A stretch of DNA of 64,000 nt from Acidimicrobiia bacterium (GTDB lineage Bacteria > Actinomycetota > Acidimicrobiia > IMCC26256 > PALSA-610), in NCBI GenBank assembly GCA_017882905.1, contig JADGOO010000113.1, positions 372-64,371 on the forward strand, in the 5' to 3' direction. Of this stretch, positions 27,850-51,423 are shown piece after piece. The translations under genes and the position numbers were made by a program. Below the pieces are notes generated by a model. The model was not told where the DNA came from. It did not search any database and saw nothing but the letters and a program-made list of their open reading frames with translations. Positions within the stretch are counted from its first letter, which is position 1; each line of letters opens with the position of its first letter.

Positions 27850-29535
27850 GTGGCGACCGACGCACCGGTTACCGTCAACGCGGACACGCAACGCCTACAC
27901 GAGATGGGCTATGCGCAAGAGCTCAGTCGCAAGATGGGCTGGTTCTCGAACTTCGCAATCTCGTTCTCGATCATCTCGATCCTGGCCGGGGCCATGACCA
28001 CCTACTGGCTGGGCATGCAGGCCGGTGGCCCCCGGGCGATCATGCTCGGCTGGATCATCGTCGGCTTCTTCTCGCTGCTCGTCGGCATGTCGATGGCCGA
28101 GATCTGCTCCACCTACCCGACTGCGGGCGGGCTCTACTACTGGTCGGCGAAGCTGGCACGGAAGAACGCCCCGGCATGGAGCTGGTTCACCGGCTGGTTC
28201 AACCTCATCGGCCTCATCGGCGTGATCGCATCGGTCGACTTCGCGCTCGCGACGTTCACGGGCTTCTTCATCCAGCTCTATCGCCCGAGCTTCGAGATCG
28301 CGGGCGCGACGGGCGCGCGCAACATCTTCTTGATCTTCTGCGCCTATCTCGTGATCCACGGTTTGTTGAACACGTTCCGGGTCGACATCGTGGCCAAGCT
28401 CGGCGACATCAGCGTCTGGTGGCACGTGATCGGCGTGCTCGTCATCTTCGTGATCCTCATCTTCGCCCCTGCACACCACCAGAGCGTCAGCTTCTTGTTC
28501 AAGTCGAAGAACCTCACCGGCTGGACGGGGCCATTCGCCGGGCTCTATGTGTTCGGCCTCGGCATGCTGCTCGCGCAGTACACGATCACCGGATTCGATG
28601 CGTCGGCGCACGTGAGTGAAGAGACGCACGGAGCGCACACGGAGGCGCCGAAGGCCATCGTGCGGGCGATCTACGTGTCGGCCATCGCCGCGTTCGTGCT
28701 CAACCTGGCGATGACACTCGCCATCCCGAAGGGCACCTTCGGCACCGGTTCGAGCGCAGTGCCCATGTACGACCACATCGGATTGATCGGCATCAACTCG
28801 GCACCCGAGCTCATCCGCCTCGCCGTGGGCGGTGCAGGCGCCAAGCTGTTGATCCTCATCTCGATCGTCGGCCAGTTCTTCTGCGGCATGGCGTCGGTCA
28901 CGGCGAGCTCACGAATGATCTACGCCTTCAGCCGTGACGGCGCGCTTCCGGGCCACAAGATCTGGCACCGCATCAACCCGAAGACGCGTACACCGACGAA
29001 CGGCGTGTGGCTCGCGGTGGTGCTCTCGGCGATCGTGGGTGCGTCGTCGCTGTACCAGAACCGTGGTGTGGCGATCGCGTTCTTCGCCATGACCGGCATC
29101 GCGGTGGTCGGGCTCTACATCGCCTACATCATCCCCGTGTATCTGCGGCTGCGGAACCGCGAGTTCCAGCAGGGCGAATGGCACCTCGGCAAGTACAGCC
29201 AGATCGTCGGGTGGACGGCCGTCGTGTGGGTCGTGATCGTCTCGATCTACTTCTTCATGCCGGTGTACCCGCTGATCCCGCGCCCGTGGGACGACTTCCA
29301 CGGATTCGCCAACGTGTTCAACTGGTCGGGTCCGCTGATCCTGCTGTCGTTCATCGCCGTGTCGATCTACTGGCTGGTCTCGGCCAAGAACTGGTTCCAG
29401 GGACCGCAGGTGCAAGGCACGCCCGAGGAGCTGCGCGCGATCGAGCGCGCGCTGGAGTTCGGCGATGTCGACGCCGTCCTCAAGCTCGAAGATGCCGAGG
29501 ACAAGCGGGTGACCGAGCACCAACAAGGTCACTGA
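27850..29535 (+). CDS. APC-family amino acid/amine permease (GABA/choline/polyamine type)
   Basis: FSNFAISFSIIS, AEICSTYPTAGGLYYWS, TGFDASAHVSEET, SRMIYAFSRDG. Confidence 0.9.
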   Translation: MATDAPVTVNADTQRLHEMGYAQELSRKMGWFSNFAISFSIISILAGAMTTYWLGMQAGGPRAIMLGWIIVGFFSLLVGMSMAEICSTYPTAGGLYYWSAKLARKNAPAWSWFTGWFNLIGLIGVIASVDFALATFTGFFIQLYRPSFEIAGATGARNIFLIFCAYLVIHGLLNTFRVDIVAKLGDISVWWHVIGVLVIFVILIFAPAHHQSVSFLFKSKNLTGWTGPFAGLYVFGLGMLLAQYTITGFDASAHVSEETHGAHTEAPKAIVRAIYVSAIAAFVLNLAMTLAIPKGTFGTGSSAVPMYDHIGLIGINSAPELIRLAVGGAGAKLLILISIVGQFFCGMASVTASSRMIYAFSRDGALPGHKIWHRINPKTRTPTNGVWLAVVLSAIVGASSLYQNRGVAIAFFAMTGIAVVGLYIAYIIPVYLRLRNREFQQGEWHLGKYSQIVGWTAVVWVVIVSIYFFMPVYPLIPRPWDDFHGFANVFNWSGPLILLSFIAVSIYWLVSAKNWFQGPQVQGTPEELRAIERALEFGDVDAVLKLEDAEDKRVTEHQQGH

Positions 29536-33038: not shown

Positions 33039-34487
33039 ATGATCGTGCTCGCCATCGACCAAGGCACGTCGGCGACCAAGGCGCTCGTCGTCGACGAGCG
33101 GGGCGTGGTCATCGGTGCCGCCGAGCGTGATGTGGCCGTGGATGCACGATCCGACGGAGCGGTCGAGACCGACCCCGAAGGCCTGTGGCGCTCCGTCGTG
33201 GACGCCGGCCGCGCGGCGCTGGATGGCGCGGGCCGGCCGCGCGTCGACGCGATCGGCCTGGCGAACCAGGGCGAGACGGTCTTGGCATGGGATCAGGCCA
33301 CCACCGCGCCGCTCACGTCGGCCATCGTGTGGCAGGACCGCCGCGCCGCGCCGCTGTGCGAGCGGCTCGCCGCCGACGGCTGGGATGCGCGCTTGCGCGC
33401 GCTCACAGGCCTCGAGCTCGACCCCTACTTCAGCGCTCCGAAGCTGGCGTGGCTGCGCGCGTCGCTCACCCGAGACGGCGTGGCCGGCACGACCGACACG
33501 TGGTTGCTCCAGCGCCTCACCGGCGAGCTGGTCACCGACACGGCAACCGCGTCGCGGTCGCTGCTGCTCGATCTCGACACGGCGCGGTGGTCCGCTGAGG
33601 CGTGCGCCGCGTTCGCCATCGATCCCGCAACGTTGCCCCGCATCGTCGGCAACGCCGAGCCGATCGGCGCCACCGACGTCTTCTCGCCCGGGTTGGGGGT
33701 GCCCCTCACCGGTACGTGTGTCGACCAGCAAGCTGCGCTGTTCGCGCAGCGGTGCACGGAACCCGGCGACACGAAGTGCACCTACGGCACGGGGGCGTTC
33801 CTGCTCACGCAGACCGGCACGGTCGCGCGCCGCTCCACGAACGGCCTCGTGGCATGCGTCGCGTGGCAGCTGGCCGACGGTGTGCACTACTGCCTCGACG
33901 GGCAGGTGTACACGGTGGGCGCGGCGGTCGACTGGCTACGCACCGTCGGCCTCATCGAACACGCCCGCGATCTCGACGGCGTCGGCGCGCAGGTGGCCGA
34001 CACGGGCGGCGTGGTGTTCGTGGCCGGCTTGGCCGGGCTCGCCGCACCGTTCTGGCGACCGGGTGCGCACGGCGCGTTCACCGGCCTGACCCTCGCCACC
34101 ACGCGTGCCCACCTCGTGCGCGCGGCCGTCGAGGGCATCGCCGCGCAGGTCGCATGGCTCGCCCGGGCCGCGGCCGCCGACATGGGTGCGCCGCTCACGT
34201 GTCTGCGCGTCGACGGCGGCCTCACGCGCTCGCGGTTGCTGCTCCAGCTGCAGGCCGACTTGGCGCAGGTTCCGATCGAGGTGCACGACTCACCGCACGC
34301 CACCGCACTCGGCGTGGCCGCGTTCGCCCGGATCGGCGCGGGCGGGGCCGGCGACGCGGCTACCGCGTTCGGCGAAGGCGTCGACACGCGCCCGACCACC
34401 GTGATCGAGCCGGCGATCGGCCGGGCGGAAGCCGAGGCCCGCCTCGACGCATGGCGCACCGCAGCCGAAGGGACGGCCGAGCTGTGA
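33039..34487 (+). CDS. FGGY-family kinase, glycerol-kinase-like
   Basis: AIDQGTSAT, NQGET, WQDRR, DPYFSAPK, DQQAALF, KCTYGTGAF, VDGG. Confidence 0.88.
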   Translation: MIVLAIDQGTSATKALVVDERGVVIGAAERDVAVDARSDGAVETDPEGLWRSVVDAGRAALDGAGRPRVDAIGLANQGETVLAWDQATTAPLTSAIVWQDRRAAPLCERLAADGWDARLRALTGLELDPYFSAPKLAWLRASLTRDGVAGTTDTWLLQRLTGELVTDTATASRSLLLDLDTARWSAEACAAFAIDPATLPRIVGNAEPIGATDVFSPGLGVPLTGTCVDQQAALFAQRCTEPGDTKCTYGTGAFLLTQTGTVARRSTNGLVACVAWQLADGVHYCLDGQVYTVGAAVDWLRTVGLIEHARDLDGVGAQVADTGGVVFVAGLAGLAAPFWRPGAHGAFTGLTLATTRAHLVRAAVEGIAAQVAWLARAAAADMGAPLTCLRVDGGLTRSRLLLQLQADLAQVPIEVHDSPHATALGVAAFARIGAGGAGDAATAFGEGVDTRPTTVIEPAIGRAEAEARLDAWRTAAEGTAEL

Positions 34488-37216
34488 GCGACCCCGGCGC
34501 GCGCCGCACCGAACCGTTCGACGTGGCCGTGGTCGGCGCAGGGGTGGTGGGGACGGCGATCGCGCGCGAGCTCGCACAACGGGGCGCGCACGTACTGATC
34601 GTCGAGGGCGGACCCGACATCGGCGCGGGCACGAGCAAGGCGAACACCGCGATCCTTCACACAGGATTCGACGCCAAGCCCGACACGACCGAGGCGCGCC
34701 TCGTTGCCCGCGGCGCGACGCTCCTCGGCGCCTACGCAGAGCGACGCGGGATCGCGGTCGAGCGCACCGGCGCGTTGCTGGTGGCGTGGACCGAGGAACA
34801 GCTTGACACGCTCCCCCGCCTCGCCGAGCAAGCCGCGCAGAACGGCTACCGCCACACGCACCTCGTCGATCGTGGATCGCTCACGACACTCGAGCCCCAC
34901 CTCGGCGCCGGTGCACTCGGCGCGCTGGCCGTTCCCGACGAGGCCATCATCGACCCGTGGTCGCCGGTGATCGCGTTCGCCACTGACGCCGTGCTCGCCG
35001 GCGCGCAGCTCGTGCGCGGCGCGCCTCTTCACGCGATCGATCTCGCTGGTGCTCACCACACGTTGCACACACGCGACGAGTCGTTCACCGCGCGTTGGAT
35101 CGTGAACGCGGCCGGTCTGCACGCCGACGACGTGGATCGCCTCGCCGGGTTCTCCGCGTTCACCGTGACCGCGCGCCGCGGCGAGTTGATCGTGTTCGAC
35201 AAGCTGGCGCGCCGGCTCGTGCACCACATCCTGTTGCCTGTACCCACAGCCACGACCAAGGGCGTTCTCGTGAGCCCGACGGTGTTCGGCAACGTGGTGC
35301 TCGGACCGACCGCCGAGGACCTCGACGACAAGGACGACCGATCGACAAGTCGCGCCGGTCTCGACGGCCTGCTCGCCCACGGGCGGCGCATCGTGCCCGC
35401 GCTCGTCGACGAGGAGATCACCGCCACCTACGCCGGTCTGCGCGCCGCGACCGAGCAATCCGACTACCGGCTCGCGACCTACGCCGAGCAGCGGTGGATC
35501 ACGGCGGGCGGCATCCGCTCGACCGGGCTGACGGCGTCGATGGCGATCGCCGAGCACGTGGCCCGGGAGCTGGTGGGCGCGGGGCTGGCGCTCCGGCCGC
35601 GCGACGGCGACGGCAACGGCGACGGCGACGGCGCGTGGTCGGTGCCACCGCTCGGCGAGACGACGCGGCGGCCGCACGGCGACGCGGCGCGCATCGAGGC
35701 CGACCCCGCCTACGGCGAGATCGTGTGCCACTGCGAGCGGGTGACCGCCGGCGAGCTGCGCGATGCCTGGGCCAGCCCGATCCCGCCCGTCGACCTCGAC
35801 GGCCTCCGGCGCCGCACGCGCGTGCTCATGGGCCGCTGCCAGGGCTTCCACTGCGCCGCCGCCGCCCGCACACCCCCCGAGCCCCCGATGCGTCGCTCAC
35901 CCGCGTCTGGCGCGGGTGAGCGACGCATCGGTGGGGCGTCGGGGGCGGGGCGAGTCGATGTGCTGGTGGTCGGCGCCGGGCCCGCCGGCCTCAGCGCGGC
36001 CGCGCGGCTCGCCGCGGCCGGCGTGGCCGTGCTCGTCGTGGAACGGGCCGAGGCGCCCGGCGGCATCCCCCGCCACACCCACCATCAGGGCTTCGGCTGG
36101 CGCGACCTGCGTCGCAGCCTCACCGGGCCGCAGTACGCGGCGCGCCTCGCCGACCGCGCCGTGGCCGCCGGTGCCGCGATCGAGCTCGCAACCACGGCGG
36201 ACATCGCCAGTGACGCCTGGGCCGGAACGCGCGCGTTCGAGCTCACTGCGCCCGGCGGGCGGCGCCGCGTCGAGGCCGGCGCGGTCCTCCTCGCAACAGG
36301 CTGTCGTGAGCGACCGCGCAACGCGCGCCTCGTCCCCGGCGACCGGCCCGACGGTGTGCTCACCACGGGCGCGCTCCAGGTGCTGATCGATGCCGGACGG
36401 TTCCATGGTGCGCGCGCTGTCGTGGTGGGCGCGGAGCACGTGTCGTACTCGGCGGCGCTCACGTTGCGACATGCCGGTTGCGCGGTCGCGGCGATGGTCA
36501 CCACGGAACCGGGACCGCAGAGCTTCGCGGCGTTCGACGTGATCCGCCGCGTCGTGTGGCGCACTCCCCTGCTCACGCGCCGTGCACCGGCGCGCATCAA
36601 CGGTCGACACGGCCGGGTGGAAGCGGTCGTGCTCGACGACGGCCGCGTGATCGAGTGCGACACGGTCGTGTTCAGTGGCGATTGGATACCAGACCATGAG
36701 CTCGCCCGCCGCGGCGGGATCGGCATCGATGCGCCAACCCGTGGCCCGTCGGTCGACATCGCGCTGCGCACGCGCACACCGGGCGTGTTCGCAGCCGGCA
36801 ACCTGTTGCACGCGGCGGCGACCGCCGATGTGTGCGCGCTCGACGGCCGTCATGTGGCCGCGGCCATCACCGCATGGCTCGGCGACGGTCGCTGGCCCGA
36901 GGCGCCGGTGGCGATCACCGCCGAGGCACCGTTCGCGTGGGTCAGCCCGAACCGTCTCTCCCCGGGCGGGAGCACTCTGCGCTCGCCGAACGGTCGCCTC
37001 CTCGCCCTGCCCGGCGCCGGTCGCGGCCCCGGCGGCGCCGGAGCGGGTCCCGGCCACCCCGGTCGGGCCACCCGCGTGGTGACCGTCGCACAGCACGGTC
37101 GGGTGCTCTGGCACGGCCGCCGGCGCCTCGTGGCGAACCGCCTCGTAAGCATCCCCGACGGTTGGCTGGCCGCCGTCGACCCGGATCTCGGAGCCGTCCG
37201 TGTCTCGGCCTCGTAG
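34484..37216 (+). CDS. Fusion: GlpA-like FAD oxidoreductase + BFD-like [2Fe-2S] domain + pyridine-nucleotide-disulphide-type oxidoreductase (910 aa)
   Basis: VVGAGVVG, GTSKANTAILH, CHCERVT, MGRCQGFHC, then a second VVGAGPAG, LLATGCRER, FAAGNLLH, all in one frame. Confidence 0.8.
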   Translation: MSDPGARRTEPFDVAVVGAGVVGTAIARELAQRGAHVLIVEGGPDIGAGTSKANTAILHTGFDAKPDTTEARLVARGATLLGAYAERRGIAVERTGALLVAWTEEQLDTLPRLAEQAAQNGYRHTHLVDRGSLTTLEPHLGAGALGALAVPDEAIIDPWSPVIAFATDAVLAGAQLVRGAPLHAIDLAGAHHTLHTRDESFTARWIVNAAGLHADDVDRLAGFSAFTVTARRGELIVFDKLARRLVHHILLPVPTATTKGVLVSPTVFGNVVLGPTAEDLDDKDDRSTSRAGLDGLLAHGRRIVPALVDEEITATYAGLRAATEQSDYRLATYAEQRWITAGGIRSTGLTASMAIAEHVARELVGAGLALRPRDGDGNGDGDGAWSVPPLGETTRRPHGDAARIEADPAYGEIVCHCERVTAGELRDAWASPIPPVDLDGLRRRTRVLMGRCQGFHCAAAARTPPEPPMRRSPASGAGERRIGGASGAGRVDVLVVGAGPAGLSAAARLAAAGVAVLVVERAEAPGGIPRHTHHQGFGWRDLRRSLTGPQYAARLADRAVAAGAAIELATTADIASDAWAGTRAFELTAPGGRRRVEAGAVLLATGCRERPRNARLVPGDRPDGVLTTGALQVLIDAGRFHGARAVVVGAEHVSYSAALTLRHAGCAVAAMVTTEPGPQSFAAFDVIRRVVWRTPLLTRRAPARINGRHGRVEAVVLDDGRVIECDTVVFSGDWIPDHELARRGGIGIDAPTRGPSVDIALRTRTPGVFAAGNLLHAAATADVCALDGRHVAAAITAWLGDGRWPEAPVAITAEAPFAWVSPNRLSPGGSTLRSPNGRLLALPGAGRGPGGAGAGPGHPGRATRVVTVAQHGRVLWHGRRRLVANRLVSIPDGWLAAVDPDLGAVRVSAS
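35603..35632. repeat. 6-bp tandem repeat (GACGGC)x5 encoding DGDGNGDGDG
   Basis: gacggc gacggc aacggc gacggc gacggc. Confidence 0.8.
35874..35945. repeat. Long palindrome in frame at the fusion junction
   Basis: Perfect 21-bp arms at 35885-35905 and 35911-35931, loop TCTGG, imperfect C/G extension. Confidence 0.9.
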
Positions 37217-37246
37217 GCTCGGCCGCCAGTGCGAAGGGGGAAGCCC

Positions 37247-38629
37247 ATGACCGTTCCCGGCATGCTCGACGCGACGGAGCTCGCCGACCACATCCGTAGC
37301 GGCGCGATCGACACGGTGCTGGTGGTGTTCCCCGACCTGCAGGGGCGCCTCATGGGCAAGCGCGTCACGGGCCACTTCTGGCTCGAGCAGATGCGCGGTG
37401 GTCAGGGCGAGATCCACGCGTGCAACTACCTGCTCGCGGTCGACTCCGAGATGACGGTGCTCCCCGACTACCGCTACGCGAACTGGGACACCGGCTACGG
37501 CGACTTCGCGCTCGCGCCCGACCTCACCACGATCCGCCTCATCCCATGGCTCGAAGCGACCGCCCTCGTGATGTGCGACGTGGCCGACGAGCGCTCGGGC
37601 GCGCCGGTCGAGGTGTCACCGCGCCGCATCCTGCAACGGCAGGTGGAGCGCGCCGCGGCACTCGGCTACTCCGTCTACATGGGCTCCGAGCTCGAGTTCC
37701 TACTGTTCCGCGAAACGCTCGAAGAGGCGGCCGAGAAGCACTACACCGATCTCGCGCCACTCTCCAACGTCGTGCTCGATTACCACATCCTGCAGACCAC
37801 GCGCGACGAGTCGATCATCCGAGCGATCCGCAACGGGATGGACGGCGCAGGCGTACCCGTCGAGTTCAGCAAGGGTGAAGCCGAGAAGGGCCAGCACGAG
37901 ATCAACCTCTCGTACGCCGACGCGGTGACGATGGCCGACCGTCACGTGATCTACAAGAACGGCGCCAAGGAGATCGCACACCAGCACGGCCATGCGATCA
38001 CGTTCATGGCGAAGTACGACATCGACATGGTCGGATCGTCGTGTCACGTGCACTCGAGCGTGTGGAACGCCGACGGCTCGAAGTCGTTGATGTGGAGCGA
38101 CGACGGACCGCATCACCAATCCGAGGTCACCCAGGGCTGGCTCGGCGGCCTCATCGCCACCGGCCGCGAGCTCGCATGGATGCACGCCCCCACGGTCAAC
38201 TCGTACAAGCGTTACCAGCCCGAGTCCTGGGCGCCGACGGCGCTCGTCTGGGGCGAAGACAATCGCACGTGCGGGTTCCGCATGGTGGGCCACGGTCAGG
38301 GGTTCCGCGTGGAGTCACGCATCCCGGGCGCCGACGCCAACCCGTACCTCTCGTTCGCGGCCACGATCGCCGCGGGGTTGCACGGCATCGAGCTCGGGAT
38401 CACGCCCGGGTCGGTGTTCGCCGGCAACGCCTATGCCGCGCCCGACATCGCGCGCGTCCCGTGGAACATCGTGGAATCCATCGAGGAGTTCGAGCACTCG
38501 AAGGTTGCGATCGCCGCCTTTGGCGACGACGTGCACTACCACCTGTTGAACACCGCCCGGCAGGAATGGCGTGCGTTCAATCGTCACGTCACCGACTGGG
38601 AACGTCGGAGGAACTTCGACCAATGGTGA
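37247..38629 (+). CDS. Glutamine-synthetase-like gamma-glutamyl-amine ligase (PuuA/GlnA4 type)
   Basis: PDLQGRLMGKR, ELEF, GQHEIN, GSSCHVH, WGEDNRT, ESRIPGADANPY. Confidence 0.88.
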   Translation: MTVPGMLDATELADHIRSGAIDTVLVVFPDLQGRLMGKRVTGHFWLEQMRGGQGEIHACNYLLAVDSEMTVLPDYRYANWDTGYGDFALAPDLTTIRLIPWLEATALVMCDVADERSGAPVEVSPRRILQRQVERAAALGYSVYMGSELEFLLFRETLEEAAEKHYTDLAPLSNVVLDYHILQTTRDESIIRAIRNGMDGAGVPVEFSKGEAEKGQHEINLSYADAVTMADRHVIYKNGAKEIAHQHGHAITFMAKYDIDMVGSSCHVHSSVWNADGSKSLMWSDDGPHHQSEVTQGWLGGLIATGRELAWMHAPTVNSYKRYQPESWAPTALVWGEDNRTCGFRMVGHGQGFRVESRIPGADANPYLSFAATIAAGLHGIELGITPGSVFAGNAYAAPDIARVPWNIVESIEEFEHSKVAIAAFGDDVHYHLLNTARQEWRAFNRHVTDWERRRNFDQW

Positions 38630-38638
38630 GCACACACC

Positions 38639-38689
38639 CGAACATGCGTCAGAATCCGCGCAGCACACGGGGGAGCTGACGCATGTTCG
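38639..38689. repeat. 51-bp REP-like palindromic element, copy 2 (diverged); contains the RBS and ATG of the next gene
   Basis: cgaacatgcgtcag-N23-ctgacgcatgttcg: perfect 14-bp arms, same length and arm consensus as the other copies. Confidence 0.75.
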
Positions 38690-39435
38690 ATGGGAGACCG
38701 CTTGTTGGGCTCACCGCGCGGCGTCTCGCGCAAGGTCGCGTCTCGGGTTGGCAATCGGCCGGTAGCGGTGAGCGCGCGGGCTACATGGACCGCGTGCGCG
38801 CGGCCGGTGGCCTTCCGGTGCTCCTCGATCCCGCCCCCGGCGCCGCAGGTGACGCCGAAGACCTCGTGGCACGCCTCGATGCCCTCGTGCTCACGGGCGG
38901 TCCCGACGTGGAACCGTCGCGTTACGGGCAGGCCGCGCACGACAGCGTGTACGGCACCGATGCGCACGTCGACGACTTCGAGACGGCGATCACGCGTGCG
39001 GCGCTCGCCGCGCGCCTACCCGTGCTCGCCATCTGTCGGGGCATCCAAGTGCTCAACGTCGTGTGCGGCGGCACCCTGTACCAGCACATCCCCGACCGGC
39101 CCGGCGTGGAGCCCCACGGCCGTCCGGGTGAGCGCGACGGTGAGCGCATCCAGCGGATCGACATCGTCGGCGACTCTCGCCTGGCGCGAGTGATGGGCAC
39201 CACGGAGCCGATGTGCTCGTGTCACCACCATCAAGCAGTGGATCAATTGGGTGACGGGCTGCGAGTGGTCGGCCGCGCGGCTGACGGTGTGGTCGAGGCG
39301 ATCGAATTGATCGATCCCGGCGTGCCCGTGCTCGCCGTGCAATGGCATCCGGAAGACACCGCCGCGAACGACCCGGCCCAGCAAGCACTCTTCGACGCGG
39401 TGGTTGCCGATGCTCGCGCGGTGCACCACCATTGA
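38683..39435 (+). CDS. Gamma-glutamyl-gamma-aminobutyrate-hydrolase-like peptidase C26 (PuuD type)
   Basis: LVLTGGPDV, AICRGIQVLNV..GGTL, HHQAV, AVQWHPE. Confidence 0.88.
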   Translation: MFDGRPLVGLTARRLAQGRVSGWQSAGSGERAGYMDRVRAAGGLPVLLDPAPGAAGDAEDLVARLDALVLTGGPDVEPSRYGQAAHDSVYGTDAHVDDFETAITRAALAARLPVLAICRGIQVLNVVCGGTLYQHIPDRPGVEPHGRPGERDGERIQRIDIVGDSRLARVMGTTEPMCSCHHHQAVDQLGDGLRVVGRAADGVVEAIELIDPGVPVLAVQWHPEDTAANDPAQQALFDAVVADARAVHHH

Positions 39436-51372: not shown

Positions 51373-51423
51373 CGAACTTGCGTGACTCGATAGCGCAGAG
51401 CGCTATCTGGTCACGCAAGTTCG
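51373..51423. repeat. 51-bp REP-like palindromic element, copy 3
   Basis: cgaacttgcgtgac-tcgatagcgcagagcgctatctg-gtcacgcaagttcg; perfect 14-bp arms and inner gatagcg/cgctatc stem; between convergent genes. Confidence 0.9.

Follow-up and report, generated by a model that had tools for sequence, protein, structure and literature searches.

Repetitive extragenic palindromic sequences (REPs) are short dispersed stem-loops that lie mostly within 20 bp of the 3′ ends of open reading frames (ORFs), and some of them supply the stop codon (PMC3733652). A minority of REPs is translated inside ORFs, “in flexible linkers or loops,” and the resulting “REP-decorated proteins” have been proposed to be neutral (Di Nocera et al. 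2013, PMC3733652). Some REP classes (CGTC) are without a dedicated transposase, and the ends of Rickettsia palindromic elements (RPEs) also carry CGTC (PMC3733652). A REPIN is made up of two REPs arranged as a doublet and requires a REP-associated tyrosine transposase (RAYT) gene, which is present in single copy and has REPs on either side (Bertels and Rainey 2011, PMC3116915). Here, a 47-nt palindrome is described that is located in a 64-kb stretch of DNA (the window) from the draft genome of an uncultured permafrost member of the Acidimicrobiia. The palindrome is read in frame inside a 910-aa ORF that joins a FAD-dependent oxidoreductase (DAO) and BFD-like [2Fe-2S] half to an NAD(P)/FAD-dependent Pyr_redox_2 half (Table 1).

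The palindrome represents a REP-like family that is new and specific to this lineage, and the copy described here is translated. It is probably a passenger that is tolerated in the flexible linker between the two halves, and the fusion of the halves is most likely older than the element. Intragenic REPs and RPE-like elements are already known as a kind, and the comparison with palindromes translated in genes that was drawn in the initial annotation of the window is apt; the family itself is new.

A dispersed palindrome family and its sites

The core palindrome consists of two fully complementary 21-nt arms, CCGATGCGTCGCTCACCCGCG (35885–35905) and CGCGGGTGAGCGACGCATCGG (35911–35931), that enclose the 5-nt loop TCTGG. 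It is translated as PPMRRSPASGAGERRIGG between the BFD motif MGRCQGFHC (from 35828) and VDVLVVGAGPAG, with PPMRR starting at 35882 and the second Rossmann motif VDVLVVGAG at 35954. Within the linker the element itself is read as PMRRSPASGAGERRIG. The in-frame palindrome that had been reported at this position is real, and the span originally given (35874–35945) merely adds a few flanking bases. A repeat finder extends the palindrome imperfectly to 40-nt arms (35866–35905 and 35911–35950) with 80% complementarity. In the outer arms, Pro codons (CCN) on the left face Gly codons (GGN) on the right, and only ~58% of the positions are complementary, so that the outer extension is probably driven by composition. 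Outward growth of the palindrome through hairpin-templated copying was rejected for the same reason.

The genome is a 4.36-Mb draft of 259 contigs with 69.5% GC and an estimated completeness of 100%, and the window lies on contig C259. The closest orthologs of its RNase J (69–75%) belong to metagenome-assembled genomes of Acidimicrobiia. An arm search of the window that allows up to three mismatches returns the two arms of the element alone (0.04 expected from shuffles). The genome-wide search that had been proposed in the initial annotation reveals a dispersed family. BLAST followed by an nhmmer profile yields 26 sites on 19 contigs (E ≤ 1e-3). The family unit is fixed and is composed of a 15-nt arm, a 13-nt self-complementary center, and a second 15-nt arm, which amounts to ~43–47 nt. 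It is slightly longer than the 20 to 40 bp that are usually quoted for a REP unit. In all 16 copies with strict matches to the two arm cores, the 15-nt cores GATGCGYCGCTCACC and GGTGAGCGRCGCATC are separated by exactly 13 nt; many other copies carry a degenerate second arm (CCGGGYTTCCGACGCAT). The copy in the window is the sole fully symmetric one in the genome.

When 24 copies are aligned, pairing is seen in 82% of the stem cells, compared to 24–42% in controls with a slid partner. The pair 9/39 alternates between C-G and T-A, which defines two subfamilies, and it is the sole clearly covarying pair. Covariation was therefore rejected as proof of structural selection, since only this one pair is clear and the whole-structure measures do not exceed those of shuffles. 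The aligned copies all end in (C)GATGCG... and ...CGCATC(G). A GTAG/CGTC end tag is not found in them; CGTC occurs internally only, and only in the T subfamily.

No sign of a dedicated mobilizing enzyme was found. A search for RAYT (Y1 transposase, PF01797) gives no match at E ≤ 0.01 in the genome, and the same search is positive in 6 of 14 control genomes. Direct repeats that would indicate target-site duplications are not visible at the flanks of the copies. No insertion sequence (IS) with matching ends was found, and arm pairs that lie 0.3–3 kb apart are separate full copies. The ~495-aa ORFs before several copies, which were considered as a sign of a transposase-linked element, are unrelated housekeeping genes that were truncated at the 1.5-kb extraction limit. 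The strict family pattern (0 mismatches) was not found in any of 60 further genomes from this taxonomic family, a search that diverged relatives could escape.

The copies are mainly extragenic. About 11 lie 0–19 nt past the stop codon of unrelated housekeeping genes, among them those for PPDK, RNase J, oligoendopeptidase F, an acyl-CoA dehydrogenase, a thiolase-like protein, and CoA-transferases. Another 3–4 copies contain the stop codon of the host ORF, ~7 occupy other intergenic positions, and four are intragenic. At C116:1537–1580, C214:12501–12543, and C67:2651–2695, the stop of the adjacent ORF falls ~34 nt into the element and is supplied by the repeat, as it is in GTAG REPs. The four in-frame copies are found in genes with Pfam domains and with orthologs across the taxonomic family. 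Besides the fused gene in the window, these are a CoxS-like/CoxL-like fusion (contig C156, LDAPLTRAYSGSAAHR), a MidA-type methyltransferase (C242, VDAPLTGTKSGSAAHG), and an acyl-CoA dehydrogenase (C252, GCVAHRYLVTASDAS). Copies whose reading frame would meet the TGA of the second arm have TCA at this codon.

A local hot spot is seen at C252:22600–33100, where seven copies are found within ~10 kb of lipid-metabolism genes. A gene with an AbiEi_4 domain (C252:29049–29993) is flanked here by copies at 28953 and 30011 and is the only gene that lies between two copies. The AbiEi-type gene was rejected as a mobilizer, since its four distant paralogs have no copies nearby.

The genome additionally harbors at least two more families of REP-like palindromes, with copies in the window at 1297–1347, 38639–38689, and 51373–51423. 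These families recur genome-wide, for example as CGAACATGCGTCAG-N23-CTGACGCATGTTCG on contigs C32, C41, C72, C93, and C107. The repeat of the 38639 type and the family described here have the heptamer ATGCGTC/GACGCAT in common, which may be due to chance or to a shared recognition motif. The earlier statement that the palindrome is unrelated to this 51-bp REP family is correct at the level of families, apart from the common heptamer.

The family resembles the described REPs (PMC3733652) in being made of short dispersed stem-loops that are mostly intergenic, lie near the 3′ ends of ORFs, supply the stop codon in some cases, and are translated in a few. It is a REP family in the broad sense, that is, a dispersed imperfect palindrome in many copies that is predominantly extragenic near ORF ends. 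It differs from those REPs in that it is untagged, longer, and rigid in length, comprises ~26 copies, and occurs in a genome without RAYT. Its in-frame copies, moreover, do not lengthen the host proteins. The host belongs to the Acidimicrobiia (Actinomycetota), and the term “Actinobacteria” is absent from the main text of PMC3733652. REPIN/RAYT systems (PMC3116915) likewise form palindrome populations within a genome, with subfamilies, compensatory changes in the arms, lineage specificity, and vertical inheritance. The units described here, however, are singlets and are not accompanied by a Y1 transposase. RPE-1 and other RPEs are also palindromic repeats that are read in frame at permissive surface sites of proteins and that additionally occur between genes. 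They are net insertions of 20–50 residues, whereas no net insertion relative to orthologs is seen here. RPEs belong to an unrelated lineage and, as described, have unrelated sequences. Miniature inverted-repeat transposable elements are set apart by terminal inverted repeats that match an IS and by target-site duplications, neither of which is visible in this family, whose neighbors are unrelated housekeeping genes. An intrinsic (Rho-independent) terminator would require a T/U tract, which the GC-rich hairpin lacks.

Coding copies of unchanged length

The host proteins are not lengthened by any of the in-frame copies; for each of the three copies outside of the window, the comparison covers 11–13 orthologs. 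In the acyl-CoA dehydrogenase, the segment aligns without gaps to 13 orthologs (PHGCVAHRYLVTASDASG against ADAAAANLFLVTARDPHG). The linker of the CoxS/CoxL-like fusion has 54 residues compared to 45–54 in its orthologs, and the MidA-type protein shows no excess. The fused gene in the window fits this pattern, as its linker has the same length (105 nt) as those of P0002 and P0005, two fused relatives that are discussed below.

In the three genes with ortholog alignments, the DNA of the element lies at the 0.5th–3.4th percentile of nucleotide identity to the orthologs. The segments sit in the less conserved part of the proteins, and the flanking residues stay in register. In the window, the codons of the element have a GC content at third positions (GC3) of 0.62, compared to 0.88 in the rest of the gene (1.3% tail). 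A preexisting likeness of the sites to the element was considered and rejected, because an nhmmer search of the orthologous DNA at the element sites detects no similarity (E > 0.3). Judged from these alignments, the in-frame segments look overwritten in register. This may reflect either an insertion followed by a compensating deletion under selection or a templated replacement. It is conceivable, albeit doubtful, that the family enters coding DNA by same-length, in-register overwriting of ~45 nt, in a manner that would resemble templated patching or ectopic conversion, possibly from hairpin DNA and without a transposase.

The copy in the CoxS/CoxL-like fusion likewise falls into a linker between domains, with the [2Fe-2S] domains on one side and the molybdopterin-binding part on the other. 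Throughout the taxonomic family this fusion is encoded as one ORF; the match is nearly full length in 30 of 40 other genomes and fragmentary in the remainder. A copy at a domain junction therefore need not have made the junction.

Age of the fusion relative to the palindrome

The two halves of the oxidoreductase are usually separate adjacent genes, as had been stated in the initial annotation. They are split in 71 and fused in 4 of 75 classified species-representative loci, and three relatives of the same order encode them next to each other in different reading frames. When the N-terminal half is searched alone, most of the best homologs are proteins of ~470 aa. Fused forms are common all the same. 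In the full-length search, 663 of 8000 scored candidates are retained at E ≤ 1e-20, and the best 120 of them are of fused size (762–1048 aa). Such proteins, for example from Sphaerisporangium perillae (P0011), share the domain order, the length of ~900 aa, and a variable linker with the protein in the window, and they are annotated as “FAD-dependent oxidoreductase” or “glycerol-3-phosphate dehydrogenase.” The gene in the window encodes both domains in one uninterrupted ORF, and other fused genes are its orthologs with conserved synteny.

The fused and split states are interleaved across the tree of these proteins. In a separate tree that combines both searches and comprises 301 N-terminal halves (183 split, 118 fused), the window is placed in a clade with a support of 0.97 that has 12 members, 10 fused and 2 split; the fused members beside the window are P0002–P0007, P0021, P0028, and P0103. 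The N-terminal half is 67–68% identical to the fused P0005, P0006, P0002, and P0003, and at most 66% identical to any split protein. The locus of P0002 (L153) has the same gene order as the window, with an FGGY kinase, the fused gene with a 4-nt start/stop overlap, a glutamine-synthetase-like gene, and a Peptidase_C26 gene. An FGGY kinase also precedes the fused gene in L154–L160. Unlike the window, none of the nine fused clade relatives with DNA examined has this palindrome family in the linker, and the perfect inverted repeats in their linkers do not exceed 5 nt when loops of 12 nt or less are considered. Toward the 3′ end, the linkers (IGGASGAG in the window, IRAGSAG in P0005) look homologous.

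The initial annotation had proposed that the insertion of the palindrome removed a stop/start junction and thereby created the 910-aa fusion, and it had named relatives fused alike without the palindrome as the observation that would speak against this. Such relatives are found at the closest level that the databases allow. As the nearest relatives are fused, syntenic, and palindrome-free, a fusion made by the insertion is not supported. The fusion would most likely have been inherited from an ancestor common to these orthologs, and the element would accordingly be later than the fusion. The usual site of the element is intergenic DNA directly past a stop codon, where it probably acts, or is tolerated, as an RNA hairpin at the 3′ end. 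A minority of copies lies inside genes, in frame and free of stops, at the sites of weakest constraint on the protein. In the fused gene, the element probably replaced the middle of a hypervariable 35-residue linker with unchanged length and has probably been carried since then as a neutral or nearly neutral passenger. The family membership, the sites of the copies, the palindrome-free fused orthologs, the equal linker length, and the atypical codon composition are observed directly, and the order of events, the neutrality, and the manner of spread are inferred.

Several points weigh against this reconstruction. No relative above ~68% identity is present in any collection searched, so that the state just before the arrival of the element is unobserved. 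The inner node that joins the window to P0002–P0007 has a support of only 0.55, fusion and fission have occurred many times in this oxidoreductase family, and a concatenated tree puts the window outside of the rest of the fused clade with the split form G027 next to it. An independent fusion therefore costs only one extra step. The linker in the window is also without the helix (C[GAL]A.V..L[LF]) that follows CQGFxC in other homologs, which shows that the whole junction was remodeled. No RAYT, visible target-site duplications, or IS with matching ends was found that would account for movement of the element. Strong hairpins are enriched in fused linkers, which a purely neutral model does not predict. 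Finally, the only public runs that contain the organism come from one permafrost metagenome sample (five runs, ~2–3x per run), and no contig from them crosses 35874–35955, the exact pieces nearby being at 36073–36439.

The strongest alternative is that the palindrome arrived at the stop/start junction of two separate, adjacent ancestral genes and, with the stop lost and the frame shifted, made the fusion independently of the fused relatives. We regard this as unlikely, but it has several observations in its favor. Separate genes are the rule for the two halves, and the preferred site of the family directly after a stop codon is exactly the position of a gene junction. The length of the 47-nt core is not divisible by three, so that removal of the core puts the halves out of frame. 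The first protein has lost its conserved C-terminal helix, fusion has been repeated in the family with linker palindromes in other independently fused clades (L036, L035/L038), and the split form G027 lies just outside of the window in the concatenated tree. These observations are countered by the well-supported clade, 10 of whose 12 members are fused, with synteny kept and without the palindrome, and by the shared length and the apparently homologous 3′ part of the linker. Excision of the 47-nt core or of the 85-nt palindrome does not restore a split pair either, as it exposes no nearby stop and no arrangement of the split type; all frames are open for >400 nt in this 70% GC DNA. The other in-frame copies join no genes, and in the CoxS/CoxL-like protein the fusion is clearly older than the element.

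A second alternative, raised in the initial annotation as an internal processing or pausing signal, would assign to the hairpin a function in the fused mRNA that selection maintains. It might act as a pause during which the FAD/[2Fe-2S] half folds or loads its cofactors, or as an internal terminator or RNase site that sets the ratio of the halves. The stem is extraordinarily stable (−81.7 kcal/mol and z = −7.9 for 35860–35955, with 0 of 200 shuffles equally stable) and is positioned exactly in the middle of the linker. The same element elsewhere occupies sites where 3′-end hairpins normally act. Among the nine clade members with DNA, a linker folding z-score below −2 is obtained only for the window (−5.9) and the syntenic L153 (−3.7), whose 13-bp stem is unrelated to that of the window and lies at about the same linker position. 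The other seven have values of −1.2 to +2.3. Since a linker hairpin is present in only two of nine clade members, a conserved RNA signal is unlikely. Across all loci, z < −2 is reached by 3 of 13 fused linkers compared to 1 of 70 split junctions and 0–2% of control segments. The numbers are small, and the complementarity of Gly (GGN) and Pro (CCN) codons would by itself produce part of this enrichment; Gly/Pro-rich linkers in 70% GC DNA form G-run/C-run stems without selection.

A terminator scan of 35500–36300 finds no terminator-like site and no T-tract, the flank 3′ of the second arm being GTGGGGCGTCGGGGG. Rfam 15 gives no family at the gathering threshold (best 21 bits against a threshold of 70, from miRNA hairpin models). 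The element is also present in three other proteins, where the β-barrel of the acyl-CoA dehydrogenase and the MidA loop are sites without any domain-boundary logic. Taken with the seven linkers without unusual structure, these results leave a selected function of the hairpin rather improbable. The ATG inside of the first arm is an unlikely internal start, and a separate product is unlikely, because the 20 nt upstream (CGCACACCCCCCGAGCCCCCG) contain no purine run that resembles a Shine-Dalgarno sequence.

Fused linkers of other organisms have GC-rich palindromes of their own, namely TCTGGGGGGAGC|GCTCCCCCCAGA in L036, CCGGGGGG-TCG-CCCCCCGG in L035/L038, and GGTTCTGATGGG...CCCATCAGAACC in L153. 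Those of L036 and L035/L038 are of the G-run/C-run type and belong to other fused clades.

That metagenome assembly or binning produced the palindrome or the in-frame join is very improbable despite the 259-contig draft, the low depth, the lack of a spanning contig from runs X1–X5, and the difficulty that palindromes pose for short-read assemblers. The site lies in the middle of a 67-kb contig, and the coding frame is continuous on either side (GC3 0.97 and 0.92). The sequence is also one of ~26 copies whose positions make biological sense and which have diverged through substitutions and compensatory changes, as adapters or chimeras would not. Exact contig pieces of the organism are found next to the site.

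Gene neighborhood and significance

The positions of the features are collected in Table 1. The GTG start of the fused gene overlaps the stop codon of the upstream kinase by 4 nt (GTGA). The order of FGGY kinase, DAO/BFD-Pyr_redox_2 protein, glutamine-synthetase-like protein, and Peptidase_C26/GATase is kept between the window (33039–39435) and the distant metagenomic L153. This conserved order suggests one pathway that would join the oxidation of a phosphorylated polyol or sugar to γ-glutamyl chemistry. The C-terminal region of the fused protein additionally contains a Gly/Pro-rich stretch (~36990–37070, LPGAGRGPGGAGAGPGHPGRATR) that is extra compared to P0002. It harbors only a weak 14-nt palindrome (37004–37027), which is not a copy of the family.

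Table 1. Positions of the fused gene, its domains, the palindrome, and the neighboring genes in the window, and of the in-frame copies on other contigs
Feature	Position	Strand	Remarks
FGGY-family carbohydrate kinase gene	33039..34487	+	Also neighbors fused orthologs
910-aa fused oxidoreductase ORF	34484..37216	+	GTG start at 34484, stop at 37216, one open frame
DAO (FAD-dependent oxidoreductase) domain	34520..35566	+	Pfam, residues 13–361; GlpA/type-2 glycerol-3-P oxidase-like
BFD-like [2Fe-2S] domain (Fer2_BFD)	35720..35866	+	Pfam, residues 413–461; ends in MGRCQGFHC
Interdomain linker	35855..35959	+	105 nt/35 aa, AAAARTPPEPPMRRSPASGAGERRIGGASGAGRVD
Extended imperfect palindrome	35866..35950	.	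40-nt arms, 80% complementary
Core palindrome	35885..35931	.	Perfect arms of 21 nt, loop of 5 nt; belongs to the 15+13+15 REP-like family
In-frame ATG inside arm 1	35888..35890	+	Sequence reading
Pyr_redox_2 (NAD(P)/FAD oxidoreductase) domain	35957..36814	+	Pfam, residues 492–777; begins DVLVVGAGPAG
Glutamine-synthetase-like gene	37229..38629	+	Also downstream in L153 (P0002)
Peptidase_C26/GATase (PuuD-like) gene	38683..39435	+	Also a neighbor in L153
In-frame copy, CoxS/CoxL-like fusion	C156:23395-23439		Fusion linker
In-frame copy, MidA-type methyltransferase	C242:1983-2026		Loop
In-frame copy, acyl-CoA dehydrogenase	C252:22646-22689		Middle domain

For annotation, the 910-aa ORF should stay one gene, and the palindrome should not be taken to mark the border of a gene, to act as a terminator, or to indicate that the fusion is recent. 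The results add a REP-like family to an uncultured permafrost lineage of the Acidimicrobiia, one that has no GTAG/CGTC tag, no RAYT, and four translated copies. They also show, by direct comparison, that repeats of this kind persist within genes in the linkers between domains and in variable loops. The replacement of residues rather than the lengthening of the protein is not predicted by ordinary insertion models and may be of interest to specialists. If overwriting is the true mode of entry, REP-like repeats could rewrite permissive protein segments, which would represent an undescribed route of repeat spread and of linker turnover.

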